Source: an uncultured bacterium (GTDB lineage: Bacteria; Oederibacteriota; JAAXVQ01; JAUVAV01). Taken from it: a stretch of DNA of 64,000 bases. This document shows, piece by piece, positions 1 through 41,766 of the stretch. Location: positions 1 to 64,000 of the forward strand of contig CAVQBK010000005.1 in the NCBI GenBank assembly GCA_963710755.1. Reading direction: 5' to 3'. Numbering within the stretch: position 1 is the first letter of the stretch; every line of letters begins with the position of its first letter. The notes beneath the pieces are model-generated. The model worked only from the letters and a program-made list of their open reading frames with translations. It was not told the origin of the DNA and ran no database searches. A program made the translations under genes and the position numbers.

Positions 1-961
1 TCAGATCATACCCGGTCATCTGGTTGATGGCATTGTAGGTCACATTGTTCCAGTGGTTGATGGTCACCAGTTCGCGCACTTCGGCGGTGTTGGCCACGAG
101 GGCGCCGATGAGACCGCTTTTGTCAGAGGCGATCATGAGCGGCCAATGGAGGGTGCCTGTTTGCCCCTGGGCCAGCAGGGCCAGGTTGGCGCCGGTGTTG
201 TTGGTGATCAGCAGGTCATCACCATTGATCACAGCTTCCGTGTAATCGGTGGCCTGGTCAAAGCTGTTGTAGGTATAGCCAAAGCGGTAAAGGTTGGTGA
301 TTTTGCCCGGTTCCGATGATCCCACGGTATGTTCATCCATATGCGCGCTGTAGGTTTCCTGGCGCTGAGTATGGCTTTCATAGGTGACCTGCACGTCGGT
401 CACGGTTTCCTTGTCCTTGCCCGTGGTGGAGCGGGTGATCTCGCGCCAGGCGCTGGGCCGGTTGAGGTTGTCATAGGTGGTGCTGACCCGTTTGGTGACC
501 GTGGCGCTATAGTCAAAGGGATGGAGCTTGGCATAGGCGCTCTGAACGGTCTGCCAGTCGGGCATGTCCAGCGCTGATTGATCGCCCAGGCCGGTCAGGG
601 CCTCGGACATCGCTGCGACCAGCGTGCCCAAAACAGCCAACTTTGATTTTGCCAGCGTGAAAAGATCGATGGTTTTTTGGACCAGGCTGCCGTCAAAGGC
701 ATTATTCACGGTCTCTGCCAAGGCTTGCAGCAATCCGGTTGCAGCAGCAAGGGCAGCATCGGTTATCCCTGCCACTTCATCAGTAAGCCAGGTGGTCATT
801 TGCGTAATGATGCTGCCGGTGTCGAGGGTAAGCAGATTGGCCAGGGTGAGCGTCTCTTCCAACCAGGCTTGGGTAACCTGCCCGAGGCTTTGAGTGGTCA
901 TGAGCCAGGCCGTAAAGCGGCGCACGGTGCCATTGGTCAGGTTTTCATCAGCCTGCCACAT
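1..961 (-). CDS. Continuation of the giant YD/Rhs-like repeat protein in a shifted frame; runs off the left window edge
   Basis: I read the minus frame by hand: no stop from 997 down to 2. It encodes the same repeat style (YTYNSFDQATDYTE, WNNVTYNAINQMTGYD). It is absent from the ORF track, probably because no stop lies in the window. First ATG is at 961. Confidence 0.85.
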   Translation of the reverse strand, partial: MWQADENLTNGTVRRFTAWLMTTQSLGQVTQAWLEETLTLANLLTLDTGSIITQMTTWLTDEVAGITDAALAAATGLLQALAETVNNAFDGSLVQKTIDLFTLAKSKLAVLGTLVAAMSEALTGLGDQSALDMPDWQTVQSAYAKLHPFDYSATVTKRVSTTYDNLNRPSAWREITRSTTGKDKETVTDVQVTYESHTQRQETYSAHMDEHTVGSSEPGKITNLYRFGYTYNSFDQATDYTEAVINGDDLLITNNTGANLALLAQGQTGTLHWPLMIASDKSGLIGALVANTAEVRELVTINHWNNVTYNAINQMTGYDL

Positions 962-6900: not shown

Positions 6901-9731
6901 GTGCGGGTGGTGATGACCGTATGATCCAAACCGTCAGCCACCGTCCGCCGCGTCTCTACCCGTCCAAAAGCCGTGATGTCCGTGACCGCCAAGCGCTCCT
7001 GCCAATCAAGCTGTGTGCCCTGGGGATCAAGACCGGTGGTCCTGGTGATTTGGGTGTATCCTTGTAGAGACAAGGCTTGCCTTGTCTCTACAAGCCCTGA
7101 TTGAAACGTCACATCCTCATACCAGGTTTTGGTGCTAAGATCCACCCAATGACCGTCTTGCGTGGTGCCCGTGGTAGTTTTAAGCTCTTCACCGCCACAG
7201 ACTTCACCATAGCTGTCATAAGCGCGGCCATGCACTTCGGTGGTGATGGTCACCTGCGGGTTTTCATCGCTCACGCTCACTTGGCGGCTGTCCTGGATGC
7301 GGCCGTAATCATCAAAACCTTGGGCTTGCCAGGTGGTCGTGACCTGATGGCCGCCGCTATCATTGATGACTTCATGGTAAGCGGTCATCTGATTGAGGGT
7401 GTTGTATTGGGTCTGATCCTGAAGGCGCGTGCTTTGATTGCCCCGACCGGAACTGATATTAGACGAAAGGGACGCCCCCTGGGCGCCTCGACCGGAACTG
7501 ATATTAGACGAAAGGGACGCCCCCTGGGCGCCTCGACCGGAACTGATATCAGACGAAAGGGACGCCCCCTGGGCGCCCGCACTGTCGCTGAAGGTTTCGG
7601 TCACTTCCAGCAACCGGCCAAAATCGTCATACACGGCGTCTCCCCAGTCATGGGTGGAGGTCAGGCCGCCGGGATAGGTCCACAGCTCCTGATAGCTGAT
7701 GAGCTGACTTAGTTGGTTGTACACCGCGTCTTGCCAGGTTTTTTTTATGCTGCTGCCATCGGCGCCAATGAAGGTTTCGTGATGACTCTGGCTGCGGCCA
7801 TAACGGTCATAAGTAGCGTCCGCGAAAACATGATAAGACACCTGGCCGTAAACATCGGTGACTTCTTCCATGTAATCCGTGAGTTGGCCATTTTGATTAT
7901 AACCGGATGAAGGGGATTGGTTTTTAAACACCTCGGCCGGATCGCCTTCAAATTTTCCGGCTCGCCAGCGGGTCTGGGTGCGATGACCAAAAACATCTTC
8001 CCTGATTTCCGTATAGGAGGCTTGATGATCGAGGTCATCATAGGCGGCGTCCTGCCACCAACGTTGGGACGTGTGGCCTAGAATGTCCGTCGCTGATTCA
8101 TGGTACCCCATCAGCCTGCCCAAATAATCATAGGTCCCCTGTTCCCATACCGTGCGGGTCGTATTGCCCAGGGGATCGGTCGTGCTTTCTTCATAGCTCA
8201 GCAGTTGATCCTTGCTATTGAATACGGCCCGGCCCCATTCATGAATGGTATGATAGCCTTTTTGATCGGTTTTAATTTCCTTGTAGCCTATAAGGCGGCC
8301 AAAGCGATCATAGAGTCCGTTTTGCCAGGATACTAAAGTTATGATGCCCAAGGGATCCATGACGGTCTCTTCGTAGGAGAGCACATCGCCCCACTGATCG
8401 TAAGTCAGGTGGTGTCGGTCTGTGATGGTCACATTACCCAATACATCTTTGCTCTTTTGGGTAAACCCTTTGAGGCGGTGATTGGTCTCATAGCCATAAG
8501 CTTCCCAATCCACGGTGGTGCTGGTGCCGTCAATGGCGGTTTTGATTTCCCGGTAACCCATTAAACGGCCATAGTGGTCATAGCGCCCTTTTTCCCAAAC
8601 CGTATGGCGATGACGGCCCAGGGCGTCGATCAGCTCTTCTTGATAACTAACCAGTTGCCCATAGCCGTCATAGCGGGCGTTACCCCAGATCCGGGTGCTG
8701 CTTACGCCATTACTGTCGGTAATAACCTCTTTATAGCCCACCAGCAGATACTCGGAGGCCGACTGGGTTTTGCCCGCTTTTTCATCAGCCTGGCTGTAGG
8801 CCGGATTCTTGATATAGGTGCCCGCGGTCCATAACCGGTGAGTCTTATTGCCCTTGGCGTCCAGGTTGTCTTCCTGGAATTCAGTGACTTGTTTTTGGTC
8901 GTCGTACTTGGCACCATACCAATGCTTGCTGCTTTGGTTGCCCCGTTCATCAGTAAAGGTTTCATTGTAGTTGATGAGCAGTTTGCCATCGTACTGGCCG
9001 TTGGTCCATTCCACCTTGGTCTTGTTGCCGTATTGATCTATGATTTCCTGGGTGTAGCTGGTCAAGAGTTTGTTGGCATGGGTATCATTGCCTGCATAAA
9101 ACACACTGTCATCAGTATAGGTGGCGCCGTACCATTTGGTATAGGTCACATTGCCCAGGCTGTCGGTGGTCTGGGCATCATAGCTGGTCAGCAAGCGCTT
9201 GCTGTTGTAGCTCATATTATAGGTATTGCGCAAACTCACATTACCGTGGGCATCAATGACCCGTTCATTTTCCACCAGCACGGCCAGGCCGTCTTTCATC
9301 CATACCCGTTTGCCATCATCATATTGAATATAATTGAACATGGCCTGCTGGCCTAAAATGGCAAAAACCTTTTGCCTGGCAGCCTGGGCTTCCTGCTTTA
9401 ATACTGCCATGCTTTGCTCATGATTAAAGACCGAGTCCCGGAGGTTTTTGGCAATTTTTTTGGTAACTTTTTCGTTTTTAGCTGCCAGCATTTTCTCCAG
9501 GCGGTTTTGATAATCAACTATCGCCTTTTGTTTGTTCATCTGCGATTGTACGGTATCAGGCGTAAAATACCCGGATTGATAGCGATCATATTGTTGTTTG
9601 AATTGATTGCTGACTACAAAAGCATGAACAGCAGGATCAAGATAGCTGGAATAGATAAAAAAGCTTAAAATAGTAATAGAAATTACTTTATTTAGCTTTT
9701 TTATCTTTCTTTTTGTTAATTTTAGCTTCAT
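948..9731 (-). CDS. Giant secreted/surface YD/Rhs-like beta-repeat protein (2927 aa segment, >3200 aa with the continuation)
   Basis: Basic N-terminus plus hydrophobic stretch (signal/anchor), GGAGG RBS, and dozens of repeats of the form Y[DN]xxG[QR]LxxYxE...T..W; Thr/Gln/Tyr-rich. Confidence 0.85.
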   Translation of the reverse strand: MKLKLTKRKIKKLNKVISITILSFFIYSSYLDPAVHAFVVSNQFKQQYDRYQSGYFTPDTVQSQMNKQKAIVDYQNRLEKMLAAKNEKVTKKIAKNLRDSVFNHEQSMAVLKQEAQAARQKVFAILGQQAMFNYIQYDDGKRVWMKDGLAVLVENERVIDAHGNVSLRNTYNMSYNSKRLLTSYDAQTTDSLGNVTYTKWYGATYTDDSVFYAGNDTHANKLLTSYTQEIIDQYGNKTKVEWTNGQYDGKLLINYNETFTDERGNQSSKHWYGAKYDDQKQVTEFQEDNLDAKGNKTHRLWTAGTYIKNPAYSQADEKAGKTQSASEYLLVGYKEVITDSNGVSSTRIWGNARYDGYGQLVSYQEELIDALGRHRHTVWEKGRYDHYGRLMGYREIKTAIDGTSTTVDWEAYGYETNHRLKGFTQKSKDVLGNVTITDRHHLTYDQWGDVLSYEETVMDPLGIITLVSWQNGLYDRFGRLIGYKEIKTDQKGYHTIHEWGRAVFNSKDQLLSYEESTTDPLGNTTRTVWEQGTYDYLGRLMGYHESATDILGHTSQRWWQDAAYDDLDHQASYTEIREDVFGHRTQTRWRAGKFEGDPAEVFKNQSPSSGYNQNGQLTDYMEEVTDVYGQVSYHVFADATYDRYGRSQSHHETFIGADGSSIKKTWQDAVYNQLSQLISYQELWTYPGGLTSTHDWGDAVYDDFGRLLEVTETFSDSAGAQGASLSSDISSGRGAQGASLSSNISSGRGAQGASLSSNISSGRGNQSTRLQDQTQYNTLNQMTAYHEVINDSGGHQVTTTWQAQGFDDYGRIQDSRQVSVSDENPQVTITTEVHGRAYDSYGEVCGGEELKTTTGTTQDGHWVDLSTKTWYEDVTFQSGLVETRQALSLQGYTQITRTTGLDPQGTQLDWQERLAVTDITAFGRVETRRTVADGLDHTVITTRTAMVRNALGQVTGYHDEVWDQATPAGIMSVERSAMVINSQGQIMGYQELVRDITGLVSERFVSGLLYNGLDQQTASTTLSRRTGQGSLTLPPDWDNLTDEQKNAVLQDQVDHLGNGINWASLSDSQKQALLSGQNVVVGELGTLCLVQEGNQWVLQSLLYLSDLTVRDHITYDVAGRMVGYEENRQSAGNPYQTFTTWQAQGFTSAGLVAAETTVSQTSRPGSVDPGRTTTTIRTNMTYNHVGQILGYDETVTDSQSPDLITTNAIKNRTYDSLGRVAGEEETEHTQGTSTEALPEAGQLNQSFLEGLTLIKAGTEIKWDDLSDADQKDLLAGKTVDVLDVDKQKVSLSFTAGGMVMVQTSMDLTVTRTRNQVVLDSLGRLSGYTETVHTTGNGLDSLETTIRDNIAYNGHHQTMSYHETQWSSVTPGLTLERWMNAMVYDPLGQLTGYDEKTVQQSKQGQGFYLQTLTHRSAMIYTSTGLVAGYTERNERSDLPGVINTTTRSAMSYDDQGHLLAYHETGDNGQGLITTTDVDNIKTDRLGREKSRHETVVTKGYDDQGLMYQRMETRTIDHERYNSLGQKTASITQSLVEGQDSTSTVIWSQGAYNNLGQLQGFEQETRVQGPGLQQSKVQQRLDTQYNALGQLVFSQDRYTDRSAPDKVVLESLQDVSYDQQGRQATFRQIHFEGKKGVDAPQGMTTTTDRTQTSYNTKGQAESYQETRHQTGMDGNQSLDISQSISRDQIITNPAGQVTDYHETVASTATTEAIDRNWSAAFDRQGRMTSSTEIKTQGNTTWTTSQDQISYNTLNQQTGYHETVHQLTQDSQGVLVDLTNTTTRGSMTYDRQGRLVSYQDELTASDSPGLVTTVNHSRQVYDAMGQAVSWEEIQDVTGQISSKPYHLTKTVTRSSTTINLLGQVTGYAETLEEPSKGTLTTTSRDHMTYDEASRLATYHEVTHEQPLQGRALDRTVEISRQSTVYDSQGRLINSVEKKVSSDQSDLIVTTELEVKDFDAANRAVESKQKMTTSSITEPNLNRVVTISKSGITYSTASRESGYTEETTSSSAQDLKTVIVRSQQTYNDYGQMTGYNQEQRRETAATQEVLSQELSTRAGISYNELNQQTAWHEVSTQPELLLTTVTDWTQGTYNSLGQLQRYEQTSTTTGQAKAGLEAPRYTVQVTRSGTSYDNQGRLIGQTEQTQDSRTSGLVSTENLAGITYNNRAEQQTFTRMTDQVSADQSYHVTQTVKRTATGYDDDGRVLSTSEEIRSNATPDLKTLVAKDSIHYDSLQQVTAYTQTTTQQGRDNSTGQEINATETIYKSGQTYTGQGQLKSYHEENSDGTGHKDWQATAWDVYGRNTAYSETGSMPTAGDYTQAWSGSYNALDQVKTNHQTYKSDNGSQDYDKDQTSLSYNSLGQLTGYTEEGSKTNVPKYTLTVRLDFSDSYNSVGQKQHDQEIMTNDLGVVTDKTWSQGAYNGLGQLIGYHDVETRHALSLQDETTTTDWSAAFNDAYDLRGNQTHYVENSTITTRVPDSGDVVDQREENKTWHDAAYNNNNQLTWYVESVETRHALSLQETTATRSGMAYDTAGHLDYFEEIGNGPTTGQYEKTWQADSFDAQGRATKTIENGYSQAGGVNTALTREAITYEGHGWITGYHESGISGGTFEDRVWKAGLDEALIPQLAAAGMAPPITGQAYDALGRILCSTESGWNESGYYEKVQYELIYNLLSRQTAVQEVGWNLGDGCYTRQTVNQNYNQLGQRLYYEQATDFIGKGQHQTLTWRAGVKMDHGVLVPDGVAGYNSKGQLVHYIQDSRLTENNTELEAVNTHWQADFSDSYTDQGQLNRFTSLTVKNTPQGTKTTQVDRSHSLYYADGRLEAYQESTTDTIDDGQNTPFTNTANVLRSGITYYDSTRYSDDNGTTWNDYIGATGLRPDADGRLWRHQGLQAGYQELALGTQASEKPTQTIMDSMTYTHLGQQNTYTHVAG
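2188..2217. repeat. Perfect 30-bp GTAG-type REP-like palindrome, in frame in the giant gene (VETRHALSLQ)
   Basis: TGTAGAGACAAGGCA-TGCCTTGTCTCTACA. Confidence 0.95.
2422..2451. repeat. Second identical 30-bp REP-like palindrome, in frame (VETRHALSLQ)
   Basis: Identical to 2188-2217. Confidence 0.95.
7063..7092. repeat. Third REP-like palindrome, in frame (VETRQALSLQ)
   Basis: One central mismatch versus the other two copies. Confidence 0.95.
7440..7577. repeat. Three tandem 45-bp units in frame in the giant gene (GAQGASLSS[DN]ISSGR x3), homologous to the tRNA-Pro-linked array
   Basis: Unit GCC[CT]CGACCGGAACTGATAT[TC]AGACGAAAGGGACGCCCCCTGGGC; 31/36 nt match to the reverse complement of the array sequence at about 40644-40679. 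Confidence 0.92.
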
Positions 9732-26955: not shown

Positions 26956-29900
26956 TTACTTGTAATTCACACTATAAATCGGTGACGGCACTGTCGGATA
27001 AGCCCGAAATATATGCAAAAACACATTCTCTGCTTTGGTTTTTACCTCTTCCTCATTATAAACATCAACGGGTAGGCCGGTTTCGTCCTGCCACAGAAAA
27101 TCCTTTATTTCCAATCTAACCGCATCACGGGTTGATTCCCCCTCTTTCCAGTGGTCTATAGGTGCAATTTTTTCTTTTAAAAGTTCCAAAAGGCCAACGG
27201 CCACTTTTTTAATCTGTTTAATCTCATTTGGCTTTAAATTCGTCTTTTTTAATAAGTCAAAGATCGCCAGTGACTCTTCATCCAGGTCTTCTTTAACAGC
27301 TCTTGTTTTTTCTTCATCCAGTTCACGAATAAACTTCACCAAGGTTTCAAAGGTTTTTTCAATGGTAACTCTATCTTTTTCACGATTGTACTCGGCAATG
27401 ATTTCTTCAAATCGCTGCTGATAATTAGTGCGCATCGGGTTTTGATCAAGCAAACGCTGTAATTTCATCTCAATAGCTTGCCTCAAGCTTTGAACTGTTG
27501 TATGTTTTTTTTGGCTTCGTTCAAATTCCTTTCGCAAGCGCTCAAAATCAATATTGCTGATGTCATAAACATCTTGAGTTTCTTTGACCCGATTTTCATC
27601 CACCTCTATAGCGTCATCTATCACTTCATGTAATTGTTTTATAATAGCTGAAATATCTGCATGTTCGCGATCTTCTTGTAGACATTTATAAATAAAATTA
27701 ATGGCATCATAATCAGCACGGTATTGATTGATACCTTTATTATTAATACAGGCCTTGAATATTTTAAATACGCTGCGGCACATCACTTCAAATCGTTTAC
27801 GTGACTCATCATTTTCATTGACTGCTTCTTTGATCAAATCAATCGCTTTGATACGCTCAAATCCTTCGGCTTTTTGCATAGCATCAAGCGATGCACCCTT
27901 ATCTTTTAAAATTGCTTTGATATAGGAGATGGCTTCTGCCAGATCATCGAGCAAACGATCATCAGTCTCCAGCGGATCTTTTTTCCTGTCATCTCCCGGT
28001 TTACCCGTAAACGTTGCCAAGGCTTTTCTAAGATTCTTTAATATGCCGCAATAGTCAACGACCAAGCCATTATTTTTACCTTCATTCACACGATTGGCCC
28101 GGGCAATGGCTTGCATCAAGGTATGGGCTTTTAAGGGTTTATCCAGATACAGCGTCGAGAGGCTGGGTACATCAAAGCCGGTTAGCCACATCGCACAGAC
28201 AATGACAATCCGAAAAGGATGTTCTTGTGCTTTAAAGGCATCGTCAAGAGGCATGCGCTGCTTATTGATATATTCCGGTTTTTGACGCATGCTTTCCGGC
28301 AATTCCATGCCCTCTTTAATTAACTTTCGATGAGGTATAATATCCAGATCCCATTTACGAAACTTGTCTACTTCCCCTTGTTCTTCACTGATCACCACCG
28401 CCATCTGTGTCTCAGCCATCCAGTTGATCCAGCGTTTTCTAAAAATATGTTCTTGTTCATCTTCATGCTTATTTTTATTGATTTGTAATGCTTTAATCCG
28501 TTCTTGCCAATAGAACTCAATCAATTTGTGCATACGCACACAGGTAATCTTATCAATGCAGACCAGCATGGCTTTGCCGGTCTCCCAGGCATTGGAATAA
28601 TGCTCGACAAAATCACGGGCAATCTGATCAAGACGCTTTCCGGCTGTGATTACATGATAATCACGCATCAATTCTTTTTCTAAGCGCAGTTGTTCTTCAA
28701 TGCCTTCTGCTTCCCACTCTTCCAGCTTTTCGGCAATACGCTCATTCATATCATCAATGGCAATACCGAGTTTCTCACCGCGTGCATCATAGTAAAGTGG
28801 TACGGTAGCCTTATCTTCAACAGCACGGCTAAAATCATAAGTGGACACATAATCCCCAAACACCCGGCGGGTAATCTGGTCATCATTAAACAGTGGTGTT
28901 CCGGTAAAACCGATAAAACTGGCATTTTTGAGCGCATTGCGCATATTAAGCGCCAAGGTGCCGTATTGAGTGCGATGAGCCTCGTCGGTAATGACAATCA
29001 CATCATCCCGTTCCGTATAAGGCTGCTCTGGTTCTACTTTTTGATTGAATTTTTGAATCAGCGAAAAGATATAGGCTTTATGCTCTTGTAATAATTGGTT
29101 TAAATGCTTGCCGCTCGCTGCCCGGCAAGGCGATTTATCGTTATCAGCCAATCCGCAACCGGCGAAGGTTTTATAAATCTGCGTGTCCAGATCTTCACGG
29201 TCCGTTAATATTAAAAAGGTATAATTGCCGCCCAATTTGCGATGCACTTTTTGCGTAAAAAAAGCGATGGAATAACTTTTGCCGGCCCCTTGGGTATGCC
29301 AGAAAACCCCTAGTTTGCCCTGACGGTTTTTGCGATCTTTAACAGCCTCTATCGCCCGATTAACCCCCAGCACCTGATGATTACGGGCCACTATCTTTCT
29401 GGTCTCACCTGATGAATCATCAAAAATAATAAAGTTTTCCAGAATATCCAGAAAGTTGGCCTTACTGCAAACACCTTTGAGCAAGGTCTGCATATCCACC
29501 ACACCTGGATCATCTTCATCCAAACGTTTCCACTCATGAAAATGAGCCCACTGGCTGCTGATTGAACCGATCTTGGCATTGATGCCATTGGCAAACATGA
29601 CAATCGCATTGTGATGGAACAAATGCGGAATGGTATCTTTGTAATCGGAAAAATTCTTTTCAAAGGCAGTACGAAGGTTTTTATGGATGTTTTTACATTC
29701 TATAAAAAGCAAGGGCAATCCATTAACAAACCCGGCAATATCCACCCGACGACGATATAGATCGCCTTTTACCCACAGCTCACGAACACACAAAAAATGA
29801 TTATTATCAGGGCGATTGAAATCAATGAGCATAAGCCGCTGCTTGTCCAGTTCACCCTTCGCATTGCGAAAAGTAACCTGCACACCCTCTTTAATGAGTT

Positions 29901-30186
29901 GATACTTTTCACGATTAGTCGCCAGCATGGTCTGGCTGGCCATGACAGTTGCCACCTGCCGCACTGCATCATCATAAGCACTAACAGGTAAACCGGGATT
30001 GATAACACTAAGCTGCTGACGCAGATAACGAACCAACACCACCTCTTTATCAGACATCCGGCCTAACAAACCATCAACACCAAAAGATTCGTTGTTATAA
30101 GCATAAGCCGATTCCCAGCCAAGCTGGTCAGCGAGGTAATTGGCAGTGGTTTGTTGGACTAAAGAGTCTTCGGTGTATTGGTTCAT
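26956..30186 (-). CDS. hsdR: Type I restriction endonuclease subunit R
   Basis: VNGLPLLFIECK nuclease motif, WHTQGAGKS, TDEAHR, GFTGTP, MWLTGFDVP, QAIARANR. Confidence 0.97.
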   Translation of the reverse strand: MNQYTEDSLVQQTTANYLADQLGWESAYAYNNESFGVDGLLGRMSDKEVVLVRYLRQQLSVINPGLPVSAYDDAVRQVATVMASQTMLATNREKYQLIKEGVQVTFRNAKGELDKQRLMLIDFNRPDNNHFLCVRELWVKGDLYRRRVDIAGFVNGLPLLFIECKNIHKNLRTAFEKNFSDYKDTIPHLFHHNAIVMFANGINAKIGSISSQWAHFHEWKRLDEDDPGVVDMQTLLKGVCSKANFLDILENFIIFDDSSGETRKIVARNHQVLGVNRAIEAVKDRKNRQGKLGVFWHTQGAGKSYSIAFFTQKVHRKLGGNYTFLILTDREDLDTQIYKTFAGCGLADNDKSPCRAASGKHLNQLLQEHKAYIFSLIQKFNQKVEPEQPYTERDDVIVITDEAHRTQYGTLALNMRNALKNASFIGFTGTPLFNDDQITRRVFGDYVSTYDFSRAVEDKATVPLYYDARGEKLGIAIDDMNERIAEKLEEWEAEGIEEQLRLEKELMRDYHVITAGKRLDQIARDFVEHYSNAWETGKAMLVCIDKITCVRMHKLIEFYWQERIKALQINKNKHEDEQEHIFRKRWINWMAETQMAVVISEEQGEVDKFRKWDLDIIPHRKLIKEGMELPESMRQKPEYINKQRMPLDDAFKAQEHPFRIVIVCAMWLTGFDVPSLSTLYLDKPLKAHTLMQAIARANRVNEGKNNGLVVDYCGILKNLRKALATFTGKPGDDRKKDPLETDDRLLDDLAEAISYIKAILKDKGASLDAMQKAEGFERIKAIDLIKEAVNENDESRKRFEVMCRSVFKIFKACINNKGINQYRADYDAINFIYKCLQEDREHADISAIIKQLHEVIDDAIEVDENRVKETQDVYDISNIDFERLRKEFERSQKKHTTVQSLRQAIEMKLQRLLDQNPMRTNYQQRFEEIIAEYNREKDRVTIEKTFETLVKFIRELDEEKTRAVKEDLDEESLAIFDLLKKTNLKPNEIKQIKKVAVGLLELLKEKIAPIDHWKEGESTRDAVRLEIKDFLWQDETGLPVDVYNEEEVKTKAENVFLHIFRAYPTVPSPIYSVNYK

Positions 30187-32456
30187 TCGGTTTCCCTATC
30201 TGTAGAAATAAGCTTCACCATGCCATCAAAATGGTTGCTATCAACTTTTTTCATCATTTCAACAATACATTTCATTACTTCTACTGTCTCACCTAGAATC
30301 GTCGGGTCATGCTCCGGTTCACTAACCCCTCCAGAATGTGAGTACGTATGTAACAATCTCAATATCTTAGTTTTCTTGTCCACATCGTAGTCAACACGCT
30401 CAAAGCGTTTTCTTAAATCACCGCAGCAATCTGGATATCGGTATGAAAAAAACGTTTCAAGCAACCGACGTGCAATATTAGGCATACCATAATATTGTGA
30501 TAATTCAGATCCTGTCGGGTTGCTATTAGCTACATCATAGACATGTCTAAACAAAAAGTGATATTCTGATTCGAATTCTTCCAGTAATGGATCAATTGAC
30601 GACAGTTTAGCGTTTCTTTGATCACCATCTTTTATAGCCAACAATGCATAGAAACGCCCAGGACGTTGTGTAATATCATTTTTCTTTTGTCCTGGCAAAT
30701 GATGAAACCAATTTTTAATTTGACGAAAGAATGCAAAATTATGTGTCAGAACAAATAACTGTTGGCATTCTTTTGTCCGCTCTTTCATGTAGCCAAATGC
30801 GGCAAACAATGCATTTGCATCAAGGCTTGAGACAGGATCATCAATCACAACAACGCCATTTTTTATATCAAATTTCTTATCTTCCAATGATTTTAAAAAA
30901 TAAAGAAATGTTATTGCTGTACGCTCACCCTCACTCAAGTCTTTTGCTGGAATTCCAGCACGAGTTAGCACATATCCTGTATCTTTGACTTGAAATTGTA
31001 ATTCATCCCGCCCGAGATAATCTTTTAATTCTTTATTCAATTCTTCAGCGGGACGACGGTGTTCGATTATTTCACGCTCAACAACCTCAATCTGTTTACT
31101 TATTTCTTCAGGTTTGTTCTTAACATTGTCATATTCTCTTTGCCTCTCAATAACTGTTTTGCATAATTCATCATATTCAGTATATGTCTCAAGAACATAA
31201 TCCTGCTCTAATAATTTATATGCCTCATCAATTTTATCATTTAAATTTTCTGTTATCTCGTTATGTTCATCAATGAAAGCATTCAGTGAATCAATTGCTT
31301 CCAAAAGGGATTGGGGTTCTCCTTTTTCAATTGTAACTACCTTAAATGGTGATGTCATTTTTTGTGACAAAGCATTTTTGTATTTACTAAGTTCATTATT
31401 AACATTTTTTATTATTTCTTTTGCTGCAGTAACAGCATTTTTATACTTCGCTGTTAGATTTTCATATAACCTTGACTCATCAGAAAACACCACATTTCCA
31501 ATAACATCCATGTGTCCATTAATTTCAGTGATCAGATCTTCTATATCTTTTTGAAATTCATTAAAAGCATCATTGAAATGTCCTTCTAATTCTTCGCGAC
31601 GCGCACCAGATATAACATTACCGCAAAACCTACATGTACCAGACTGATATTCACCCTCGTGTAATTCGAGACCCCTTTTCACCCATGAAGCGACATCCGC
31701 ATCATTCGCTAAAGCTTCAATTACCTGTGAAGCAATCATGCGTTTAAGTAAATCCGATGTTTTTATATAAAGATCATTTAAATCCGGACAAGAAAAATTA
31801 ATACGAGCAACATTATTTTTTGCCTGTAACTCTTTTTGTATTCTTAAGCTGTTTTTTTCTTCATCAGACAGTTTCGTAGGTCGTGGTACTTTTCCTTTAA
31901 GCTCTTTCGCAGCAGTATCATATCTCCTTTTATCATAAGTGGCATGTTGGGCAGAGCCAAGCAAGGCTTCTTTTATTAATTTAGCTTTGCCTATACAAAA
32001 ATCATCCAATGCTTTATCTGCATTACGTTTATTATTATCTGTCTCATCCAACGTCTTATTAGCAGATTCAAGTTCTTTCTTTAATTGTTCGATTTCCTTT
32101 TGTTTGCCAATATTCTCTTCTCCGATAAAATAAATAGGCGTCACATTATCCTGATCAACGGATTCAATTGTTTTTTTAACGAATGACCGATTGAATACTC
32201 TAACGGCGGGTGTCGTTATTTTCGATAAGTTAGAACCAGATATTTTATTTCCATTATCCAATTCAAATGCAACTTCGCCTTCTGTAATATCACGTTTGTC
32301 TTGAACATGCTCAAACAGTGAAGAAACCGTTGTCTTCCCGGTTCCATTCCATCCGTAAATCACATTAAATTGAGCAAAAGAAGTCAAATCATCCGGCCAG
32401 CTAAATTCTCGGAATATCCGGTGGTTTTTAATTTTCGAAATACGAGAAATTTTCAT
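30183..32456 (-). CDS. rloC: RloC-like AAA_13/SMC-type ATPase with zinc hook and C-terminal HEPN anticodon-nuclease domain
   Basis: Walker A GWNGTGKT, RVFN, CRFC hook in coiled coil, LSEGE signature, IDDPVSSLD, LTHN, NIARRLLE and RLLHTYSH; located inside an hsd locus. Confidence 0.8.
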   Translation of the reverse strand: MKISRISKIKNHRIFREFSWPDDLTSFAQFNVIYGWNGTGKTTVSSLFEHVQDKRDITEGEVAFELDNGNKISGSNLSKITTPAVRVFNRSFVKKTIESVDQDNVTPIYFIGEENIGKQKEIEQLKKELESANKTLDETDNNKRNADKALDDFCIGKAKLIKEALLGSAQHATYDKRRYDTAAKELKGKVPRPTKLSDEEKNSLRIQKELQAKNNVARINFSCPDLNDLYIKTSDLLKRMIASQVIEALANDADVASWVKRGLELHEGEYQSGTCRFCGNVISGARREELEGHFNDAFNEFQKDIEDLITEINGHMDVIGNVVFSDESRLYENLTAKYKNAVTAAKEIIKNVNNELSKYKNALSQKMTSPFKVVTIEKGEPQSLLEAIDSLNAFIDEHNEITENLNDKIDEAYKLLEQDYVLETYTEYDELCKTVIERQREYDNVKNKPEEISKQIEVVEREIIEHRRPAEELNKELKDYLGRDELQFQVKDTGYVLTRAGIPAKDLSEGERTAITFLYFLKSLEDKKFDIKNGVVVIDDPVSSLDANALFAAFGYMKERTKECQQLFVLTHNFAFFRQIKNWFHHLPGQKKNDITQRPGRFYALLAIKDGDQRNAKLSSIDPLLEEFESEYHFLFRHVYDVANSNPTGSELSQYYGMPNIARRLLETFFSYRYPDCCGDLRKRFERVDYDVDKKTKILRLLHTYSHSGGVSEPEHDPTILGETVEVMKCIVEMMKKVDSNHFDGMVKLISTDRETE

Positions 32457-33649
32457 ACCACCAATTCTCCGTTCATCAGTTTGGGCAATAGTAAATCTCG
32501 GGCTTTAATAAGTTGTCTATTCATTGCTTGCAGGTTCTTTATTTTAGCGAGAAATGGGCCAACGTGATTCCGAAACATTTCCAGAATTACTTCATCCGGA
32601 AGAACCATTTCGTATTCGCGTATTACTTGCTGGCTGATATTTCTTTGAGCAGCGCCTTGGCCGAGATTGCGCAAGCCTTCTTTATTTGATAGAAAAAACA
32701 TAAATGCATGTTCATAGCTTGTTCCTTTAAACTTCGGCATAACTGCGCAACATGCTTGATTACAGGTTGACTCATCAACTATTACACCAACTTGGCCAAT
32801 TGTAGCTCCATACATTGCAATTAATACGGTATTGGCGGGCAGCAACTTTGCCGATGACATTTTTATTGCATTCTCAGTTATGTGTTCTTCTGTATCAAAC
32901 AAGAAGCAATCCAACAATTCTTGAGTTTTCACCCACTTAATATCACCGCCATAGAATTCTTGATTCTTTCGGTTTGGAGTACCTCCCGATGTTGTATCAT
33001 AAAAGTCCCTTACCACTCCTTTCTCCCACCCTTCCGGCACGCCGTTTTTTATTTTGACATGCTCATGTCCGGGAAAGCGGAAGTGGACGAACCATTCTTT
33101 GTACAAAAGCCTGGCTGATTGTTCGAGCAATTGTATTCTGCGGCGGTTGTTTTCGATCAGATCGTCGTAGGCGGAAAGGATGGAGGCGATTTTTCTCTGT
33201 TCTGACAGCCCGCAGTCAAGTATTTCTCCACGCAATACAGTCTCCGCATCTACCGCTGGATAGGATGTTCCTTTTGCATTATTTGCTAAATAATTTGTGA
33301 ATTTCTGATCGGTAACCGCATAATATATAAAACGAGGCTCAGTATTATTCTTTGATCGTAATACTGCAAAACCAGTGGAAACGATCAAATTATTTTTAGG
33401 GTCTTTTAAAAATAAAAAAGAACGCAAATTAGGTCGCACCATAGAAAGAATAGTATCCCCATCTTTAACTTTTCTTTTTGCCCTACTTGGTGCTTCAGAT
33501 AATTGTAGTAATTTTGGACTTTCAATTAACTGTCCCGTACCAACTGATGAAATATCAATATATTCGATTTCATTTTCAGCATATGATTTTGATATTGACT
33601 CGGGATTTATCTCAACAAATTTTTGCAAAGGTGTTGTTTTCTTACTCAT
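32453..33649 (-). CDS. hsdS: Type I R-M specificity subunit S
   Basis: Two TRDs with conserved EQRKIASILSAYDDLIENN and ARDLLLPKLMNG; start at ATG 33649 after GGAG. Confidence 0.95.
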   Translation of the reverse strand: MSKKTTPLQKFVEINPESISKSYAENEIEYIDISSVGTGQLIESPKLLQLSEAPSRAKRKVKDGDTILSMVRPNLRSFLFLKDPKNNLIVSTGFAVLRSKNNTEPRFIYYAVTDQKFTNYLANNAKGTSYPAVDAETVLRGEILDCGLSEQRKIASILSAYDDLIENNRRRIQLLEQSARLLYKEWFVHFRFPGHEHVKIKNGVPEGWEKGVVRDFYDTTSGGTPNRKNQEFYGGDIKWVKTQELLDCFLFDTEEHITENAIKMSSAKLLPANTVLIAMYGATIGQVGVIVDESTCNQACCAVMPKFKGTSYEHAFMFFLSNKEGLRNLGQGAAQRNISQQVIREYEMVLPDEVILEMFRNHVGPFLAKIKNLQAMNRQLIKARDLLLPKLMNGELVV

Positions 33650-33680
33650 GTTAATTCTCCAGCTACACATCATTTGATAT

Positions 33681-34700
33681 TTAAAAATCCTTACCTTCCA
33701 ACCGTTTCACTTCTTTGTCAAAATCAGAACTATAATTTTGATCCTGGATTTGACGGAAGGTTTGGTATTCCTGCTCGGCTTTGAGTTTGGCTTCCAGGGC
33801 TGTGATTTTGCCGCTGTCTTGCAGGATGGGATAATCAGAGAGTTTTAGGAAGTCATCTAAAAAGGTGCTCCACTCCTGCATTTTGGTAGCGATCTGGCGC
33901 TCGGCCCGGCTTTCTGCCAGATCGAGATAGGCCGATACGATGCGATTAAGCTCTTTGATATGCGCTTCATTAAGATAGTTTTTAGCGATGGTGACATCGG
34001 ATTTTAAGATTTTGCCTTCCGGTGCTTGTTTCCAACTGGTCAATCCCATATAAAGCTTAGTCGCATCTGCTGAATGATAGATAATCTCTGCCGCGGTTTG
34101 GCCGGTGATAGCCCAATGCAGTTTGTTCTGCACTGTTGCGAAGAATGCTTTGGTCACAGGCGCGTTTTTATCATAATCAATGGCCAGGCTATAAATATCG
34201 GTAATCTTTTGATAAAAGCGGCGTTCACTAGCCCTGATCTCGCGTACGCGCTCTAATAATTCGCCAAAATAATCTTTGCCAAACTTTGGACCTTGTTTTA
34301 AGCGCTCATCATCCATGACAAAGCCTTTGATAATGTACTCTTTTAATGTTTTGGTAGCCCAGATGCGGAATTGGGTGGCTTCATAGGAGTTGACACGGTA
34401 ACCTAGAGCTATAATGGCATCAAGATTGTAGAATTCTACATTGCGTTCAACCTGACGATTCCCTTCAGATTGAACTATCCGGAATTTCCGGATAGTTGCT
34501 TCTTTCTCTAATTCCTTATTTTTGAATATATTTTGTAGATGTTCGTTTACTGTTCGGACATCTACAGCAAACAATTCAGCCATTCTTTTTTGCGACAGCC
34601 AAAAGGTCTCATCTTGGTACATAACTTCAATATGGACTTTGCCCTGAGGCGTGGAATAGAAAATAATATTTGATTGTTCTATGGCGTTGTTGTCTTCCAT
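33681..34700 (-). CDS. rhuM: RhuM-family protein
   Basis: ETFWLSQKRMAELF, YNLDAIIALGYRVNS, IRASERRFYQKITDIY, VQNKLHWAITGQTAAE. Confidence 0.9.
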   Translation of the reverse strand: MEDNNAIEQSNIIFYSTPQGKVHIEVMYQDETFWLSQKRMAELFAVDVRTVNEHLQNIFKNKELEKEATIRKFRIVQSEGNRQVERNVEFYNLDAIIALGYRVNSYEATQFRIWATKTLKEYIIKGFVMDDERLKQGPKFGKDYFGELLERVREIRASERRFYQKITDIYSLAIDYDKNAPVTKAFFATVQNKLHWAITGQTAAEIIYHSADATKLYMGLTSWKQAPEGKILKSDVTIAKNYLNEAHIKELNRIVSAYLDLAESRAERQIATKMQEWSTFLDDFLKLSDYPILQDSGKITALEAKLKAEQEYQTFRQIQDQNYSSDFDKEVKRLEGKDF

Positions 34701-36748
34701 TAGATACCCAGTTCCTCAAAGTTTTTCTTGATGATCTTGGCCAGTTTGTTAGCTTCCTGATTCAAGTCTTCCAATTCGACATGGATCTCGCGCATGGTCT
34801 CTTCAAAATCAAAGTTTTCATCTTCTTCCTCCGGCGCGACGCCAACATACCTGCCTGGTGTCAGACTCCAGTCATTGGATGCCAATGTTTTATGATCCAC
34901 CAGCTTGACCAGACCTTCTACATCTTGCAGTTTGGCTTCCGGGAAACGACCAGTCAGCCAATGAGCCTGTTTCCAGAAATAGCGTACTTGTTTGAGCTGT
35001 TCCACCGCGATTTGGCGGTATTGGTCGATTTCTTTTAAGTTGCGCTGGCTGCTTCGTGAGGCCTGGCCTTCTGTATTGGATATTAATTTGTAAATCAAAT
35101 CAGTCTGCTTGACCAGATCACGGCTGGTTTCACCTAATCCGCTTAGACGATCGACAGCTTGTTTTAAAGCGCCATTGCTCTTTTTCTGTGCTTGCCATAA
35201 TTTTTTTTGCTCGTTAATGGTTTTATTAAATGCTTCACTATCTTTTTCAAAGGTTTTTAGATTATGGGTAATCTCTTTTTTGTTTTCACTATTTTCTGTC
35301 AATGTTGGCAGCAGCTCTTTCATCCCTGCTATAAATTGCGGGAGCGGTTGAATAGCCTGGCTATCATCATCTTTAGTTTTAAAACAGGCTTCTGCTTCTT
35401 GGATGATGTTATGACAATAATTGCCGACTACATCTAAATAGTAGCTGGTTTGTCCCTTATAGAGTGAGACAATGGCCAGTAAGTTATTTTCCTGCTCCGG
35501 ACTAAAATCAAATATTTTACGGGTAACCTTGCGATAGATTTGACGGGCATCGATCATCAGGACTTTGTCTTTATGTTGTTTAGGTTTGTTACGGTCTAAA
35601 AACCATAGTTCACAAGGCACGGTTCGGGTATAGAAAAAGTTGGACCTGATGGCAATCATGATGTCCACACTGCCTGATTCAATCAGCTTTTGCCTGACCT
35701 TGGCTTCATCCCGGCCGGCACTGGAGGCCTGAGAGGACATGACAAATCCGGCTCTGCCCTGCTCATTTAAAAAACTGTAAAAGTAACTGATCCAGATATA
35801 ATTGCCGTTACTGATTTTTTTCTTTTTATTCACCCCCGGCAGTCCAAAAGGCAGTCGCTCTTTATCATTTTTTACCTTGGCCTCGTCAATCTCATCGACA
35901 TTAAAGGGCGGATTGGCCATGACAAAATCAGCTTTGCCGGTCAGGTGATGTGGTTCTTCATAATAGGTAATCGCTTTATTGATATTGCCTTCCAGGCCAT
36001 GAACAGCCAGATTCATTTTGGCCAGACGGATGGTAGTGGCATTTTTTTCCAAGCCGTAAAAAGTCAATTTTTCCGAAGGATTTTGATGCCGGCTTTCTAC
36101 TACCTTGGCGCTTTGGACAAACATACCACCTGACCCGCAAGCTGGATCAAGAATGATCCCCTTTTCCGGATTAATCACATGGGCGATTAATGAAACCAAA
36201 GAAACAGGCGTAAAAAACTCGCCGCCATCATGGGCTTTTTGATCGGCAAATTGAGTGAGAAAATATTCGTAAATGCGGCCAAAGACATCACCAGATACTT
36301 TTTTTAATTCTTCAGGATTGAGGGTGCGCAAGAGTTCGCCCAAGACTTCATTATCCAGTTCTTTATATTCATTTTTAGGCAAAACACCTTTTAGGTTTTC
36401 ATAGTCTTTTTCTATGGATTCCATGGCATCAATAATCGCTTGCGCCCGGTCCTGATCTTCACTTAAAGCAACCAGATGATCAAACTGCGCTTGGGGCTGG
36501 AGATAGATGGCGCTTTCTCGGGAAAAATCTTCTTTGGTAAGCGGCCTGGTGTGACCGCCCCGCTTAGGCAGGTTGGGTTCTATTTTGGCTTTGATCGTCA
36601 AATAACGGCTATAGGCATGGCGTAAAAAAATCAAGCCCATGACGGGCAGAAAATATTCATTACTGGCATAATTGGAATTGGCTCTTAAGGTATCCGCAGC
36701 GCTCCAGAGTCGTTTTTCAATAGCTTCAATGTGTTCAAGTTGTGCCAT
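34700..36748 (-). CDS. hsdM: Type I R-M N6-adenine methyltransferase subunit M
   Basis: LWSAADTLR, GEFFTP, DPACGSGGM, NPPF, LTPGRYVG. Confidence 0.97.
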   Translation of the reverse strand: MAQLEHIEAIEKRLWSAADTLRANSNYASNEYFLPVMGLIFLRHAYSRYLTIKAKIEPNLPKRGGHTRPLTKEDFSRESAIYLQPQAQFDHLVALSEDQDRAQAIIDAMESIEKDYENLKGVLPKNEYKELDNEVLGELLRTLNPEELKKVSGDVFGRIYEYFLTQFADQKAHDGGEFFTPVSLVSLIAHVINPEKGIILDPACGSGGMFVQSAKVVESRHQNPSEKLTFYGLEKNATTIRLAKMNLAVHGLEGNINKAITYYEEPHHLTGKADFVMANPPFNVDEIDEAKVKNDKERLPFGLPGVNKKKKISNGNYIWISYFYSFLNEQGRAGFVMSSQASSAGRDEAKVRQKLIESGSVDIMIAIRSNFFYTRTVPCELWFLDRNKPKQHKDKVLMIDARQIYRKVTRKIFDFSPEQENNLLAIVSLYKGQTSYYLDVVGNYCHNIIQEAEACFKTKDDDSQAIQPLPQFIAGMKELLPTLTENSENKKEITHNLKTFEKDSEAFNKTINEQKKLWQAQKKSNGALKQAVDRLSGLGETSRDLVKQTDLIYKLISNTEGQASRSSQRNLKEIDQYRQIAVEQLKQVRYFWKQAHWLTGRFPEAKLQDVEGLVKLVDHKTLASNDWSLTPGRYVGVAPEEEDENFDFEETMREIHVELEDLNQEANKLAKIIKKNFEELGI

Positions 36749-39221: not shown

Positions 39222-39586
39222 TGGAGGAAACCGGTGGCTGGCACAGGTTTTCAGAAAAAAGATTTCCGATCTTTTACATGCCAGCGGCCATTGCCTTCCG
39301 CTATGTTGGCAACAATGGAAAATGTCGCACGGTTTAGTTGATCAACAAGATAAAATGTTCCTCTTGGAAAAGTCCCGGTTATTTTGGATATTTCGGCGGC
39401 AAAGGTTACGGATTTTTGGTAGACCAGAAAATTTGGAAAAACCTTTTATGGCCATTAGATAAAATTAATAAAAATCGAAAGGTGAAAGGCGATAGGAGAT
39501 TGTGAGGCGAAAGGTGACCGCAGGGGATCGGCTTGCCGTTTCCCCTATCCCCTCTTCCCTGCTCCGTTTTTCGCGGAGCGAAAAAC

Positions 39587-39663
39587 TGGCGTCCCAGCCA
39601 GGATTCGAACCCGGGGCCGACGGATTAGAAATCCGTTGCTCTATCCAGCTGAGCTACTGGGAC
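39587..39663 (-). tRNA. tRNA-Arg(UCU)
   Basis: GTCCCAG acceptor stem, TAGCTCAGCTGGATAGAGC D arm, ACGGA-TTTCTAA-TCCGT anticodon arm, GTTCGAATC, encoded CCA. Confidence 0.97.
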
Positions 39664-40004
39664 GTTGACACCGGCTTTTGCCTTGCATAGCGCGCGGCAA
39701 TGGTGAATTGATAGAAATAGTTGTTCCAAAATTCCGCGGTCATGCCCCATTCATTCCGGGCGGCAAAATAATCAGCAAAGGTTTCCCGGGCGCGGACGAC
39801 TTCTTTTAAACGCATTTTATTTTTTTCATCTTCGAGAGTCAAATCAAACAATTCCAGCGCCCGGTCAAAGGCCTTTTGCGCCGAGACCGCGTTGCCCTTG
39901 GCGCGCCAGTTGATGGCTCGACCAACCTCACTGCCGATATTGGCCATTTGTTCCATCAGACTAAATTTTTTCCAGCGCCCGGCAGCCATAGAGCTATGCT
40001 GCAT
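39654..40004 (-). CDS. Conserved-looking hypothetical helical protein (EQMANIGSEV motif)
   Basis: Starts 1 nt after the stop of the upstream DUF5674 gene; stop codon overlaps the tRNA-Arg 5' end. Confidence 0.7.
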   Translation of the reverse strand: MQHSSMAAGRWKKFSLMEQMANIGSEVGRAINWRAKGNAVSAQKAFDRALELFDLTLEDEKNKMRLKEVVRARETFADYFAARNEWGMTAEFWNNYFYQFTIAARYARQKPVSTSQ

Positions 40005-40005
40005 G

Positions 40006-40346
40006 TTAAAACACCACTACTTTGTCGATTAATTCCAATATCCTTGTGCGAATATGTTCATCTTCCACACCCCGGCTGCGGTTGTTCATGGAAGGACGTA
40101 TATTGATCATGGAATCAAATTCCACAAAATCTTCCCGCGGGTTATCAGGGTACAAATTTATCCCCCAGAGATTTTTTGCTCCGATCCGTTTTGAATCAGC
40201 AGGGATTCCAAGCCGGCTTGCAATTCGGCATCCAGCGCAATCAGCTTTTTTTCCACATCTACCACCGCTTTCACCATGTCACCGAAATAATTGCCTGTCA
40301 TGGCTTTGACTTCATGGATCGTGATCACCTCGCCAATGATTTGCAT
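40006..40346 (-). pseudogene. DUF5674-family gene with a 1-nt frameshift in an A6 tract
   Basis: GGAGG RBS and MQII...MVKAVVDVEK...GSEQK; adding one A at 40172-40177 restores NLWGINLYP..FVEFDSMINIRPS.NNRSRGVED through to TAA at 40006. Confidence 0.8.
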
Positions 40347-40544
40347 GCTCAGATGCCTCCACTTCAAATCAATTCCCCGGGCCCCTGATCAGACTGCTCC
40401 TACGCGGCCACTCAGAATCGGATCGGAGTTGTATCCTTTTCTTTGCAGGTGAGCCCATGTTCCATATTGCGCCTCATCATGGGGAAGGCGGAAGATGACT
40501 ATGCGGTCGTACGGATAGGCTTGAACCATTTGGTTAAACCATGG

Positions 40545-40978
40545 CCGGTCGGGGCTGCGGAAGTCATCGAAGATGACTGCAGCGTCCCTTTTTGATAATA
40601 TCCATTCCGGTCGGGGCTGCGGAAGTCATCGAAGATGGCTGCAGCGTCCCTTTTATATAATATCTATTCCGGTCGGGGCTGCCGAAGGCGTCCCTTTTAT
40701 ACAATATCCGAACCAGTCGGGGCTGCGGAAGTCATCGAAGATGACTGCAGCGTCCCTTTTATATAATATCTATTCTGCTCGGGGCTGCCGAAGGCGTCCC
40801 TTTTATACAATATCCGAACCAGTCGGGGCTGCCGAAGGCGTCCCTTTTTGATAATATCCATTCCGGTCGGGGCTGCGGAAGTCATCGAAGATGACTGAAG
40901 CGTCCCTTTTATATAATATCTATTCTGCTCGGGGCTGCCGAAGGCGTCCCTTTTATACAATATCCGAACTGGTCGGGG
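40545..40978. repeat. tRNA-Pro-linked tandem array of 8 modular units (62,62,44,62,44,44,62,44 bp)
   Basis: TCGGGGCTGC starts at 40549, 40611, 40673, 40717, 40779, 40823, 40867 and 40929; the ninth TCGGGG (40973) is the tRNA 3' end. Confidence 0.95.
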
Positions 40979-41045
40979 TGGAAGGATTCGAACCTTCGGC
41001 CCCCTGCTCCCAAAGCAGGTGCGCTAGCCACTGCGCTACACCCCG
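40970..41045 (-). tRNA. tRNA-Pro(UGG)
   Basis: CGGGGTG acceptor stem, CCTGC-TTTGGGA-GCAGG anticodon arm, GTTCGAATC, ends CACCCCGACCA. Confidence 0.97.
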
Positions 41046-41280
41046 TACACGCAAAGAGTATCATATTTATATCTTTTCATCACTTTTTTCAAGTCATTTT
41101 TTGGATTTTACAATCCCTCTACCAATCATTGGCCCTTTATTTTTATTCACCTCTGTTACCTGAACAACGCAGCGCATCCATGGACTTGTAAAATATTTGT
41201 TCATCACAATAAATGTTTCTTAACCTTTTACCGTGGCTATGACCAGATAGGCACCAACAATGCTACAAAGAGGCTCTATT

Positions 41281-41766
41281 GTGAAACCTGCTGTCTTGGT
41301 ACTGGGACTAGGAAATCCCCTGCTTAGCGATGACACCATTGGCCTGCATATTGTGGAAACAGCCTCCGAACAACTGGGCCCTGCTTTTCCCAATGTCGCT
41401 TTTAAGGTCAACTATTCGGGTAGTTTTGATTTGTTGGAAGACTTGGCCGGGTTTACCCACCTGTTGGTCATTGACAGTATTGATGCACCCAGCCAGCCAC
41501 TGGGATCTGTTTTTGAGTATACCCTGGAGGATTTCCAGGAGCACACCCAGCAGGCTGTGCTCAACTGGCACAGTGTCAATATTCCTACCCTCATTGAGGT
41601 AGGGCGCAAATGTGCCTATGCTCTGCCGGAGACCATTATATTTTTTGGCATCGTGGGCCATCAGTTTATCGCCTTTTCCGAAGAACCGGCATCGGAGCTC
41701 AAGCTTATCATCAAGCAAACCGTAACTGATGTTAAGACCCAGTTAAATAGATGGTTAAATAAATGA
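41281..41766 (+). CDS. Hydrogenase maturation protease
   Basis: VLGLGNPLLSDDTIG, LLVIDS; GTG start after AGAGG (alternative ATG at 41260). Confidence 0.9.
   Translation: MKPAVLVLGLGNPLLSDDTIGLHIVETASEQLGPAFPNVAFKVNYSGSFDLLEDLAGFTHLLVIDSIDAPSQPLGSVFEYTLEDFQEHTQQAVLNWHSVNIPTLIEVGRKCAYALPETIIFFGIVGHQFIAFSEEPASELKLIIKQTVTDVKTQLNRWLNK

Follow-up and report, generated by a model that had tools for sequence, protein, structure and literature searches.

A candidate minisatellite with a hairpin-bearing unit at the tRNA-Pro genes of an uncultured bacterium

The tandem array that begins at the 3' end of a tRNA-Pro(TGG) gene in the window (contig C5 of a 3.44-Mb, 13-contig genome; the whole 64,000-nucleotide stretch analysed here) is probably, if by a modest measure, one locus of an interspersed, non-autonomous minisatellite that is specific to its lineage and has a hairpin in each unit. 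Tandem units of 42-63 bp and dispersed loci with unrelated flanks, both features of a minisatellite, occur here. Slipped replication or unequal recombination would lengthen, shorten and homogenise arrays of this kind. New loci would be seeded by multi-unit pieces, for example circles popped out of an array, that recombine into the chromosome through short homology, using host functions and no element-encoded enzyme. The three tRNA-Pro genes of the genome may be favoured because their 3' ends are identical to the unit core over 8-11 bases, and they would then serve as short-homology anchors at which a crossover leaves the tRNA intact. Selection might subsequently retain the arrays that run in the same direction as the surrounding genes, as well as the frame-keeping arrays in tolerant protein segments.

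The window array lies entirely on the minus strand. The tRNA-Pro(TGG) gene occupies 40970-41045 (ARAGORN; Rfam tRNA model, 72 bits), and CCCCGACCA at 40978-40970 is both the last nine bases of the tRNA and the core of the first repeat unit. From there eight units are arranged head to tail over 40555-40978, as located by Tandem Repeats Finder, by sequence reading and by eight nhmmer matches (best 41.2 bits). Units 1 (40978-40935), 3 (40872-40829), 4 (40828-40785) and 6 (40722-40679) are 44 bp long, and units 2 (40934-40873), 5 (40784-40723), 7 (40678-40617) and 8 (40616-40555) are 62 bp long. A closing core, CCCCGACCGG, can be read after the last hairpin at 40545-40554. Each unit consists of a core, CCCCGA(C/G)nn, followed by an AT-rich linker that contains GATATT(A/G)T, then AAAAGGGACGC, a hairpin and GCAG. 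Four hairpins are short (GCC-TTC-GGC on the tRNA strand) and four are longer by 18 nt. These two hairpin forms are combined in mixed order with three linker types, which have 3, 3 and 2 copies, and the periods of 44, 62, 106 and 150 given by Tandem Repeats Finder result from this. The window contains the 10-mer AAAGGGACGC 11 times where 0.16 occurrences are expected, and none of 100 shuffles reaches 11. The preliminary description of this DNA had proposed an array of eight modular units starting at the tRNA-Pro 3' end, with two hairpin modules and about three linker variants in mixed combinations; the coordinates, the repeat finder and the shuffles confirm the array, and the modules are as described when read on the tRNA strand.

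A CRISPR array was considered and rejected for this locus. The variable part of the unit is only about 17 nt and is repeated within arrays rather than forming unique spacers, and the one CRISPR-DR match in a 2-kb Rfam search (40154-40197) falls outside the array with 16.4 bits against a gathering threshold of 50 (E 9.8). Elsewhere in the window, a gene cluster beside two tRNA genes (26956-36748) looks like a type I restriction-modification island. It includes an HsdM-type N6 DNA methylase gene (34700-36748) and a RhuM-family gene (33681-34700), both confirmed by Pfam, with three large ORFs (26956-33673) upstream of them.

A profile built from the unit core and run over the genome with nhmmer gave 135 matches. 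These comprise 123 units in 12 arrays (of 12, 14, 2, 4, 13, 21, 7, 13, 3, 8, 12 and 14 units), five solo units (21-28 bits) and seven weak single matches below 13 bits, which were excluded from the family count. The family therefore totals about 128 units at 17 loci, and two further degenerate solo units were also found. Unit lengths across the genome are 42, 43, 44, 45, 62 and 63 bp. The further copies whose existence had been left to a genome search are thus present in this genome, and three related genomes carry the repeat as well. In a set of 34 unit variants, drawn from four genomes that represent three genera, GGGACGC, GCAGCCCC and GACC are invariant or nearly so, and the constant part of the linker is GATATTAT. 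The hairpin loop or extension ranges from 3 to 25 nt with pairing kept. The short loops, read on the strand opposite to that of the tRNA, are GAA, GCA or GTA between C and G, and the stem there requires one bulged base and one G-T pair.

Within each array all nhmmer matches lie on a single strand, with no inverted pairs. Units are 93-99% identical within arrays and 55-90% identical between arrays. The arrays at C3:979929, C3:1081827 and C3:1101493 have a pattern of two unit types in common, and the C4 array is 96% alike to the array at tRNA-Pro(GGG). Because arrays share such block patterns, it appears that multi-unit blocks are copied between loci, and not the single 44-62 bp units whose spread had been envisaged. 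The neighbours of the arrays are unrelated housekeeping genes (MoxR/DUF58 and SHMT/deaminase, for example); one array of 574 bp separates the RNase J and FtsK genes, and another of 931 bp has a TsaD-family gene on one side and a GNAT acetyltransferase gene on the other. Apart from the tRNAs, the flanks of arrays in this genome have nothing in common, and in the nine arrays tested, terminal inverted repeats do not exceed chance. For these two reasons the idea of a larger composite element was rejected for this genome.

Past its last hairpin every array includes 0 to 10 letters of core and then ends. Two arrays, at C3:1081827 and C5:7441, have the core as their first part; those on C2, C4 and C7 and at C3:457714 and C3:1101493 start inside the hairpin. 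A fixed CCCCGAC boundary, as suggested in the preliminary description, is not supported by the non-tRNA arrays, which start at varying phases and mostly within the hairpin.

The genome has 45 tRNA genes, three of which are tRNA-Pro; all three have CCCCGACCA as their last bases, and a unit comes immediately after each. A full unit follows none of the other 42 tRNA genes, and a partial hairpin piece follows one of them, tRNA-Ser(CGA). In the sister species G001, the tRNA-Pro(GGG) and tRNA-Pro(CGG) genes also end in CCCCGACCA but continue into a native trailer hairpin with no unit, and the tRNA-Pro(TGG) gene is truncated by a contig end. The tRNA-Pro(GGG) locus can be aligned between the two species, with the upstream DNA, the tRNA and the downstream block all orthologous. 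Here, a diverged first unit and seven more units lie between two copies of CCCCGACCAGT, an 11-base direct repeat on both sides of the array, and the corresponding site in G001 is empty. Judged from this alignment, tRNA-Pro(GGG) is a filled allele in this genome and an empty allele in G001. A DNA search of G001 with the downstream flank of the window array found no match.

Three arrays lie inside long ORFs, which encode a giant protein, an OmpA-family protein and a DUF4388 protein. The first is in the window, where Tandem Repeats Finder detects three 45-bp units at 7440-7577 on the plus strand (3.1 copies, 97% matches). They are antisense to the ORF of the giant gene (948-9731, minus strand), a 2927-residue frame with recurring YD-type motifs for which the Pfam search gave no family above threshold and only one weak sub-threshold match. 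The reading frame translates the units as GAQGASLSS(D/N)ISSGR three times, so that the insertion is 135 bp in frame, or 3 x 15 residues. The match of 31 of 36 positions previously reported between these units and a unit of the tRNA-Pro(TGG) array is correct on sequence reading. Both homologues of the giant protein in the related genome G005 (63% and 46% identity) lack exactly these 45 residues, between FSDSA and GN, and the insertion junction has only four shared bases (GCCC). The G005 homologues (contigs C8 and C20) lie in open frames of 8540 and 9469 residues. In the OmpA-family protein, two units are in frame and the G001 orthologue contains units also; its distant homologues (36% identity) have gaps near the repeat, none of them clean. 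The DUF4388 protein carries 14 units of 63 bp within its linker, and its homologues in G003 and G005 have an unrelated linker at the array position. Since G001 has empty sites and the G005 homologues lack the 45 residues, arrays are gained, and the in-frame insertion of units into the giant protein is, by comparison of these sequences, real. Empty sites, which the preliminary description had proposed to look for at tRNA-Pro loci and in orthologous giant genes, thus exist at two G001 tRNA-Pro genes and in the G005 homologues. The three coding arrays all keep their frames. Its remark that only the coding copy has a unit length divisible by three holds within the window but fails genome-wide, where intergenic arrays have units of 42 and 45 bp.

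Turnover of the arrays is also visible between species. G001 has no array in the TsaD-family/GNAT spacer or after an ABC permease gene where this genome does, and conversely has arrays at five loci where this genome has none. Four other genera that were searched have little or no spacer at the TsaD-family/GNAT site. For non-tRNA intergenic arrays the spacers of the two species are too different for an empty site to be defined at the base level. The OmpA-family site is filled in both species, with two units here and at least three, accompanied by a run of N, in G001. In this species-level comparison the units are identical within each species and differ at five positions between them, the mark of concerted evolution.

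The repeat has a narrow distribution. The exact unit pattern is found in 3 of 41 related genomes, and a covariance model, R1, has matches in 4 of 99 genomes of the phylum under strict filters, with 64 candidates scored per genome. The positive genomes are this one and three of the ten other members of its family, with none among 88 genomes outside it. Across the 99 phylum genomes scored, the repeat therefore appears to be confined, in four of them, to one family of a lineage that resembles candidate division FCPU426. A scan of public collections returned 26 stretches, of which 12 are in one uncultured-bacterium MAG and four in a candidate division FCPU426 MAG; the remaining 10 are single pattern matches in other records. 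Literature searches on FCPU426 returned only community surveys among the matches listed. In two of the relatives the units have a different setting: all four pattern matches in G005 lie inside an element of about 250 bp with inverted ends, and the three loci seen in G006 all lie inside another element whose termini are inverted repeats. This genome lacks the sequences found at the ends of the G005 element.

The main rival to the minisatellite reading is a tiny site-specific mobile element that inserts 3' of a CCCCGAC(C) core and is moved in trans by a putative enzyme. Such an element would carry a new copy of the core at its own 3' end, and head-to-tail stacking would follow from this. We regard it as unlikely, even though it accounts for the unit at the CCCCGACCA end of every tRNA-Pro gene, the paired CCCCGACCAGT copies around a site that is empty in G001, the core-initiated arrays at C3:1081827 and C5:7441, the consistent array ends after a hairpin, and the nearly invariant stem and core. 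However, outside arrays there are 18 copies of CCCCGACC[AG]G, and 75 copies of CCCCGACC where base composition predicts about 100, and all of these are unoccupied; the 18 longer copies in particular speak against the general CCCCGAC insertion site of the preliminary description. Most non-tRNA arrays start inside the hairpin rather than at the core, the giant-gene junction has only GCCC in common, and the block patterns that arrays share argue for multi-unit transfer. Nor is any candidate enzyme linked to the arrays or correlated with them. No nuclease or transposase gene flanked by the repeat was found among the genes around arrays, and the dedicated trans-acting enzyme once postulated has no counterpart there, as no transposase, integrase or reverse transcriptase accompanies the arrays. 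The genome has seven full Y1_Tnp ORFs, none at an array locus, and all 11 genomes of the family carry Y1 transposase genes, although only four contain the repeat; a Y1 transposase was consequently rejected as the mover in this genome, its presence being uncorrelated with the repeat and adjacency lacking. A search for RVT_1 gave no match. The only two tyrosine recombinases (Phage_integrase family), at C7:9719 and C3:848701, are both about 300 residues long, and no integrase gene lies within or near the arrays. In a related and improbable scheme, a self-targeting, gene-less element would have a unit that ends in its own target (the 3' strand of the tRNA-Pro acceptor plus ACC), to which a host recombinase acting in trans would add units head to tail at tRNA-Pro genes or array ends, and occasionally in frame within proteins. 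The two Xer-like enzymes are the candidate recombinases here because the linker seems to resemble half of a candidate dif site. Xer/dif-type sites, such as those of IMEX and pdif modules, have two 11-base arms around a 6-8-base centre and resemble the host dif. If the arrays were Xer-dependent modules, the linker would be a degenerate dif half-site at which the two recombinases excise and insert array pieces. The presence of just these two enzymes is compatible with this idea, as is a site at C1:296141 (minus strand), a candidate dif with one mismatch from the consensus, that lies near the + to - GC-skew switch of contig C1. The linker agrees with this site at 8 of 11 positions in the right arm and 4 of 6 in the centre, but at only 3 of 11 in the left arm. 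The same loose pattern is matched equally well at 18 unrelated AT-rich genomic sites and is missing from many unit variants, which makes Xer-dependent modules very improbable.

Arrays could instead be functional RNAs, transcribed in the sense direction with a tRNA or operon, in which the hairpin ending in ...CCCCG-ACC acts as a processing or stabilising signal. The units are co-directional with both neighbouring genes at 13 of 17 loci, lie between divergent genes at two and are antisense at two. GC skew places the origin near C3:300 kb and makes the unit strand the leading strand at 13 of 17 loci, so the effects of gene orientation and of replication direction cannot be separated with confidence. 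At the two loci between divergent genes, the units are oriented toward the gene that comes after them; skew assigns both loci to the lagging side, so their direction agrees with that of the gene rather than with replication. If one A is bulged out, pairing in the hairpin has the same register as in the acceptor stem, and the hairpin extensions differ in length while pairing is kept. Against a functional RNA, a search of 39400-41400 with Rfam at loose thresholds returned two tRNAs only and no family matching the repeat, and the stem is invariant in the 34 unit variants, which leaves no covariation to count. When six unit types were each folded as three tandem copies, neither strand gave the more stable structure and pairing between units prevailed, and the likeness between unit and tRNA beyond GCCCCGACC is not above that of shuffles. 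Three of the arrays form parts of translated proteins, one in antisense orientation, and G001 does without arrays at the same operons. A functional RNA is accordingly judged distinctly improbable. Two narrower ideas about the hairpin were also discarded: the long form as a relic of the tRNA T arm, for which 1299 of 2000 shuffles did as well in local alignment upstream of the core, and the opposite strand as a row of terminators, since a consensus scan called none of the unit hairpins. The last alternative, that the array is an old local duplication or an assembly artefact, is extremely improbable. Such repeats do break short-read assemblies: at least nine G001 arrays are at contig ends and four have runs of N. 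However, the same family is present in four separately assembled genomes, arrays of up to 931 bp are found inside long contigs of the 13-contig assembly, and the coding arrays keep their reading frames. The copies elsewhere in this genome and in its relatives, together with the G005 homologues that lack the insertion, already contradict this alternative. The contigs of runs X1 and X2 are short pieces, none of which bridges an array.

Several observations weigh on the minisatellite reading itself. We infer the seeding of new loci, and only two insertion junctions, at tRNA-Pro(GGG) and in the giant gene, are resolved to the base. That all three tRNA-Pro genes are occupied, with a clean direct repeat of 11 bases, resembles targeted insertion more closely than random capture by short homology. 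Stem and core are almost constant in the four genomes, which belong to three genera, and this could indicate that a protein recognises them, rather than neutral drift. Spread in G005 and G006, where the units are inside inverted-end elements, may depend on a transposase. Finally, the orientation bias could reflect the direction of replication, as the unit strand is leading at most loci.

In behaviour the repeat is best likened to mycobacterial interspersed repetitive units (MIRUs) and to the boxB arrays of BOX elements, and its tolerance inside proteins to that of Rickettsia palindromic elements. No element-encoded enzyme is known for MIRUs or for the repeat described here, and the route by which bacterial minisatellites such as these reach new loci is, to our knowledge, still unexplained. 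MIRUs are said to have been placed by Supply et al. (1997, 2000) mostly between the genes of operons, in one direction relative to them. The repeat described here is similar in forming tandem units of tens of bases at many dispersed loci. It differs in its conserved hairpin, in a core identical to the tRNA-Pro 3' end, and in occupying all tRNA-Pro genes and, in frame, three proteins; no sequence relation is expected. For MIRU-VNTR, units of 46-101 bp at 41 loci are described in PMC3914561. Pneumococcal BOX elements have the arrangement boxA-(boxB)n-boxC with a variable tandem internal module, and in the account of them in PMC3049150 their large copies can form ORFs and changes in array size are ascribed to unequal crossing over or to circles that excise and reinsert. 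The units inside elements with terminal inverted repeats in G005 and G006 recall this organisation, whereas the arrays of this genome and of G001 are naked, with no flanking modules in common and no terminal inverted repeats. Rickettsia palindromic elements are small repeats found in frame in unrelated protein genes, according to PMC10969869. In contrast to the tandem arrays here, of which 3 of 17 loci are coding, they are single copies of about 150 bp and mostly intragenic.

The remaining comparisons involve hairpins, toxins and tRNA ends. REP and BIME sequences are short, GC-rich, imperfect hairpins with conserved mismatches in intergenic DNA, and RAYTs are Y1 transposases. This genome likewise has Y1 transposase genes, but its units are head to tail and never in inverted pairs, and no Y1 gene is flanked by them. 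The repeats of type III toxin-antitoxin systems form an array directly upstream of an endoribonuclease toxin gene. This assignment was rejected because the genes downstream of the arrays encode FtsK, GNAT, HD, acyltransferase, OmpA-family and other proteins. Directly downstream of E. coli tyrT there is a tandem repeat in which each unit repeats the tRNA 3' end. That repeat has longer units and is confined to one locus, whereas the 42-63 bp units described here have also spread to loci without a tRNA gene and into coding DNA. The duplicated tRNA 3' segment of integrase-borne tRNA insertions is present at tRNA-Pro(GGG), but an adjoining integrase gene is not. Among the literature matches listed for tRNA-linked repeats, only eukaryotic and mitochondrial cases appear.

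The repeat offers several handles on how minisatellites spread: a core of 8-11 bases common to a tRNA end, filled and empty tRNA alleles in two species of one genus, clean in-frame insertions in three proteins, and relatives with units in inverted-end elements. If spread is targeted, the repeat would be an element without genes that brings its target with it. If it is not, this would be a well-documented new minisatellite family in a barely studied candidate phylum. In practical terms, the arrays break short-read assemblies of this lineage.

Other tRNA-Pro genes and repeat loci in these genomes have neighbours of their own. In G005 (contig C31, locus L070), the tRNA-Pro(GGG) gene at 4391-4466 is followed, before its native trailer hairpin, by a different repeat of three 47-nt units, each of which ends in the last five bases of the tRNA (GACCA). 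In G004 (C72, L063/L069) and G002 (C16, L065), tRNA-Pro is followed by an insert of about 140 nt and then a second copy of the tRNA end, comprising the last 25 or so bases from the T arm to CCA. To judge from this duplication, the insert in each of these two further genera looks like the scar of a tiny integrated element. The arrays on G001 contigs C278, C319 and C379 (L086, L087 and L088) are preceded by the same leader of about 80 nt, a GC hairpin followed by an AT-rich stretch. A 30-37-nt piece of this leader is found at several loci of the present genome that are away from arrays, such as C2:240121, C13:358982 and C3:481324. G001 spacers beside repeat loci (L024, L076 and L081) contain a miniature element of about 75 nt with 15-base inverted ends, GTAACTACTCAGGTC, and these ends resemble those of the unit-carrying G005 element. 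A further motif, GATTTTCGATTCGGnCGATTnTCGAC, lies near two arrays of the present genome, at C4:179540-179660 and downstream of tRNA-Pro(GGG) (C3:~1169030), and is also present after the tRNA-Pro genes of G001. Four more loci, at C3:110774, C3:799674, C7:10258 and C13:42981, match the C4 flank in which a copy of this motif lies.
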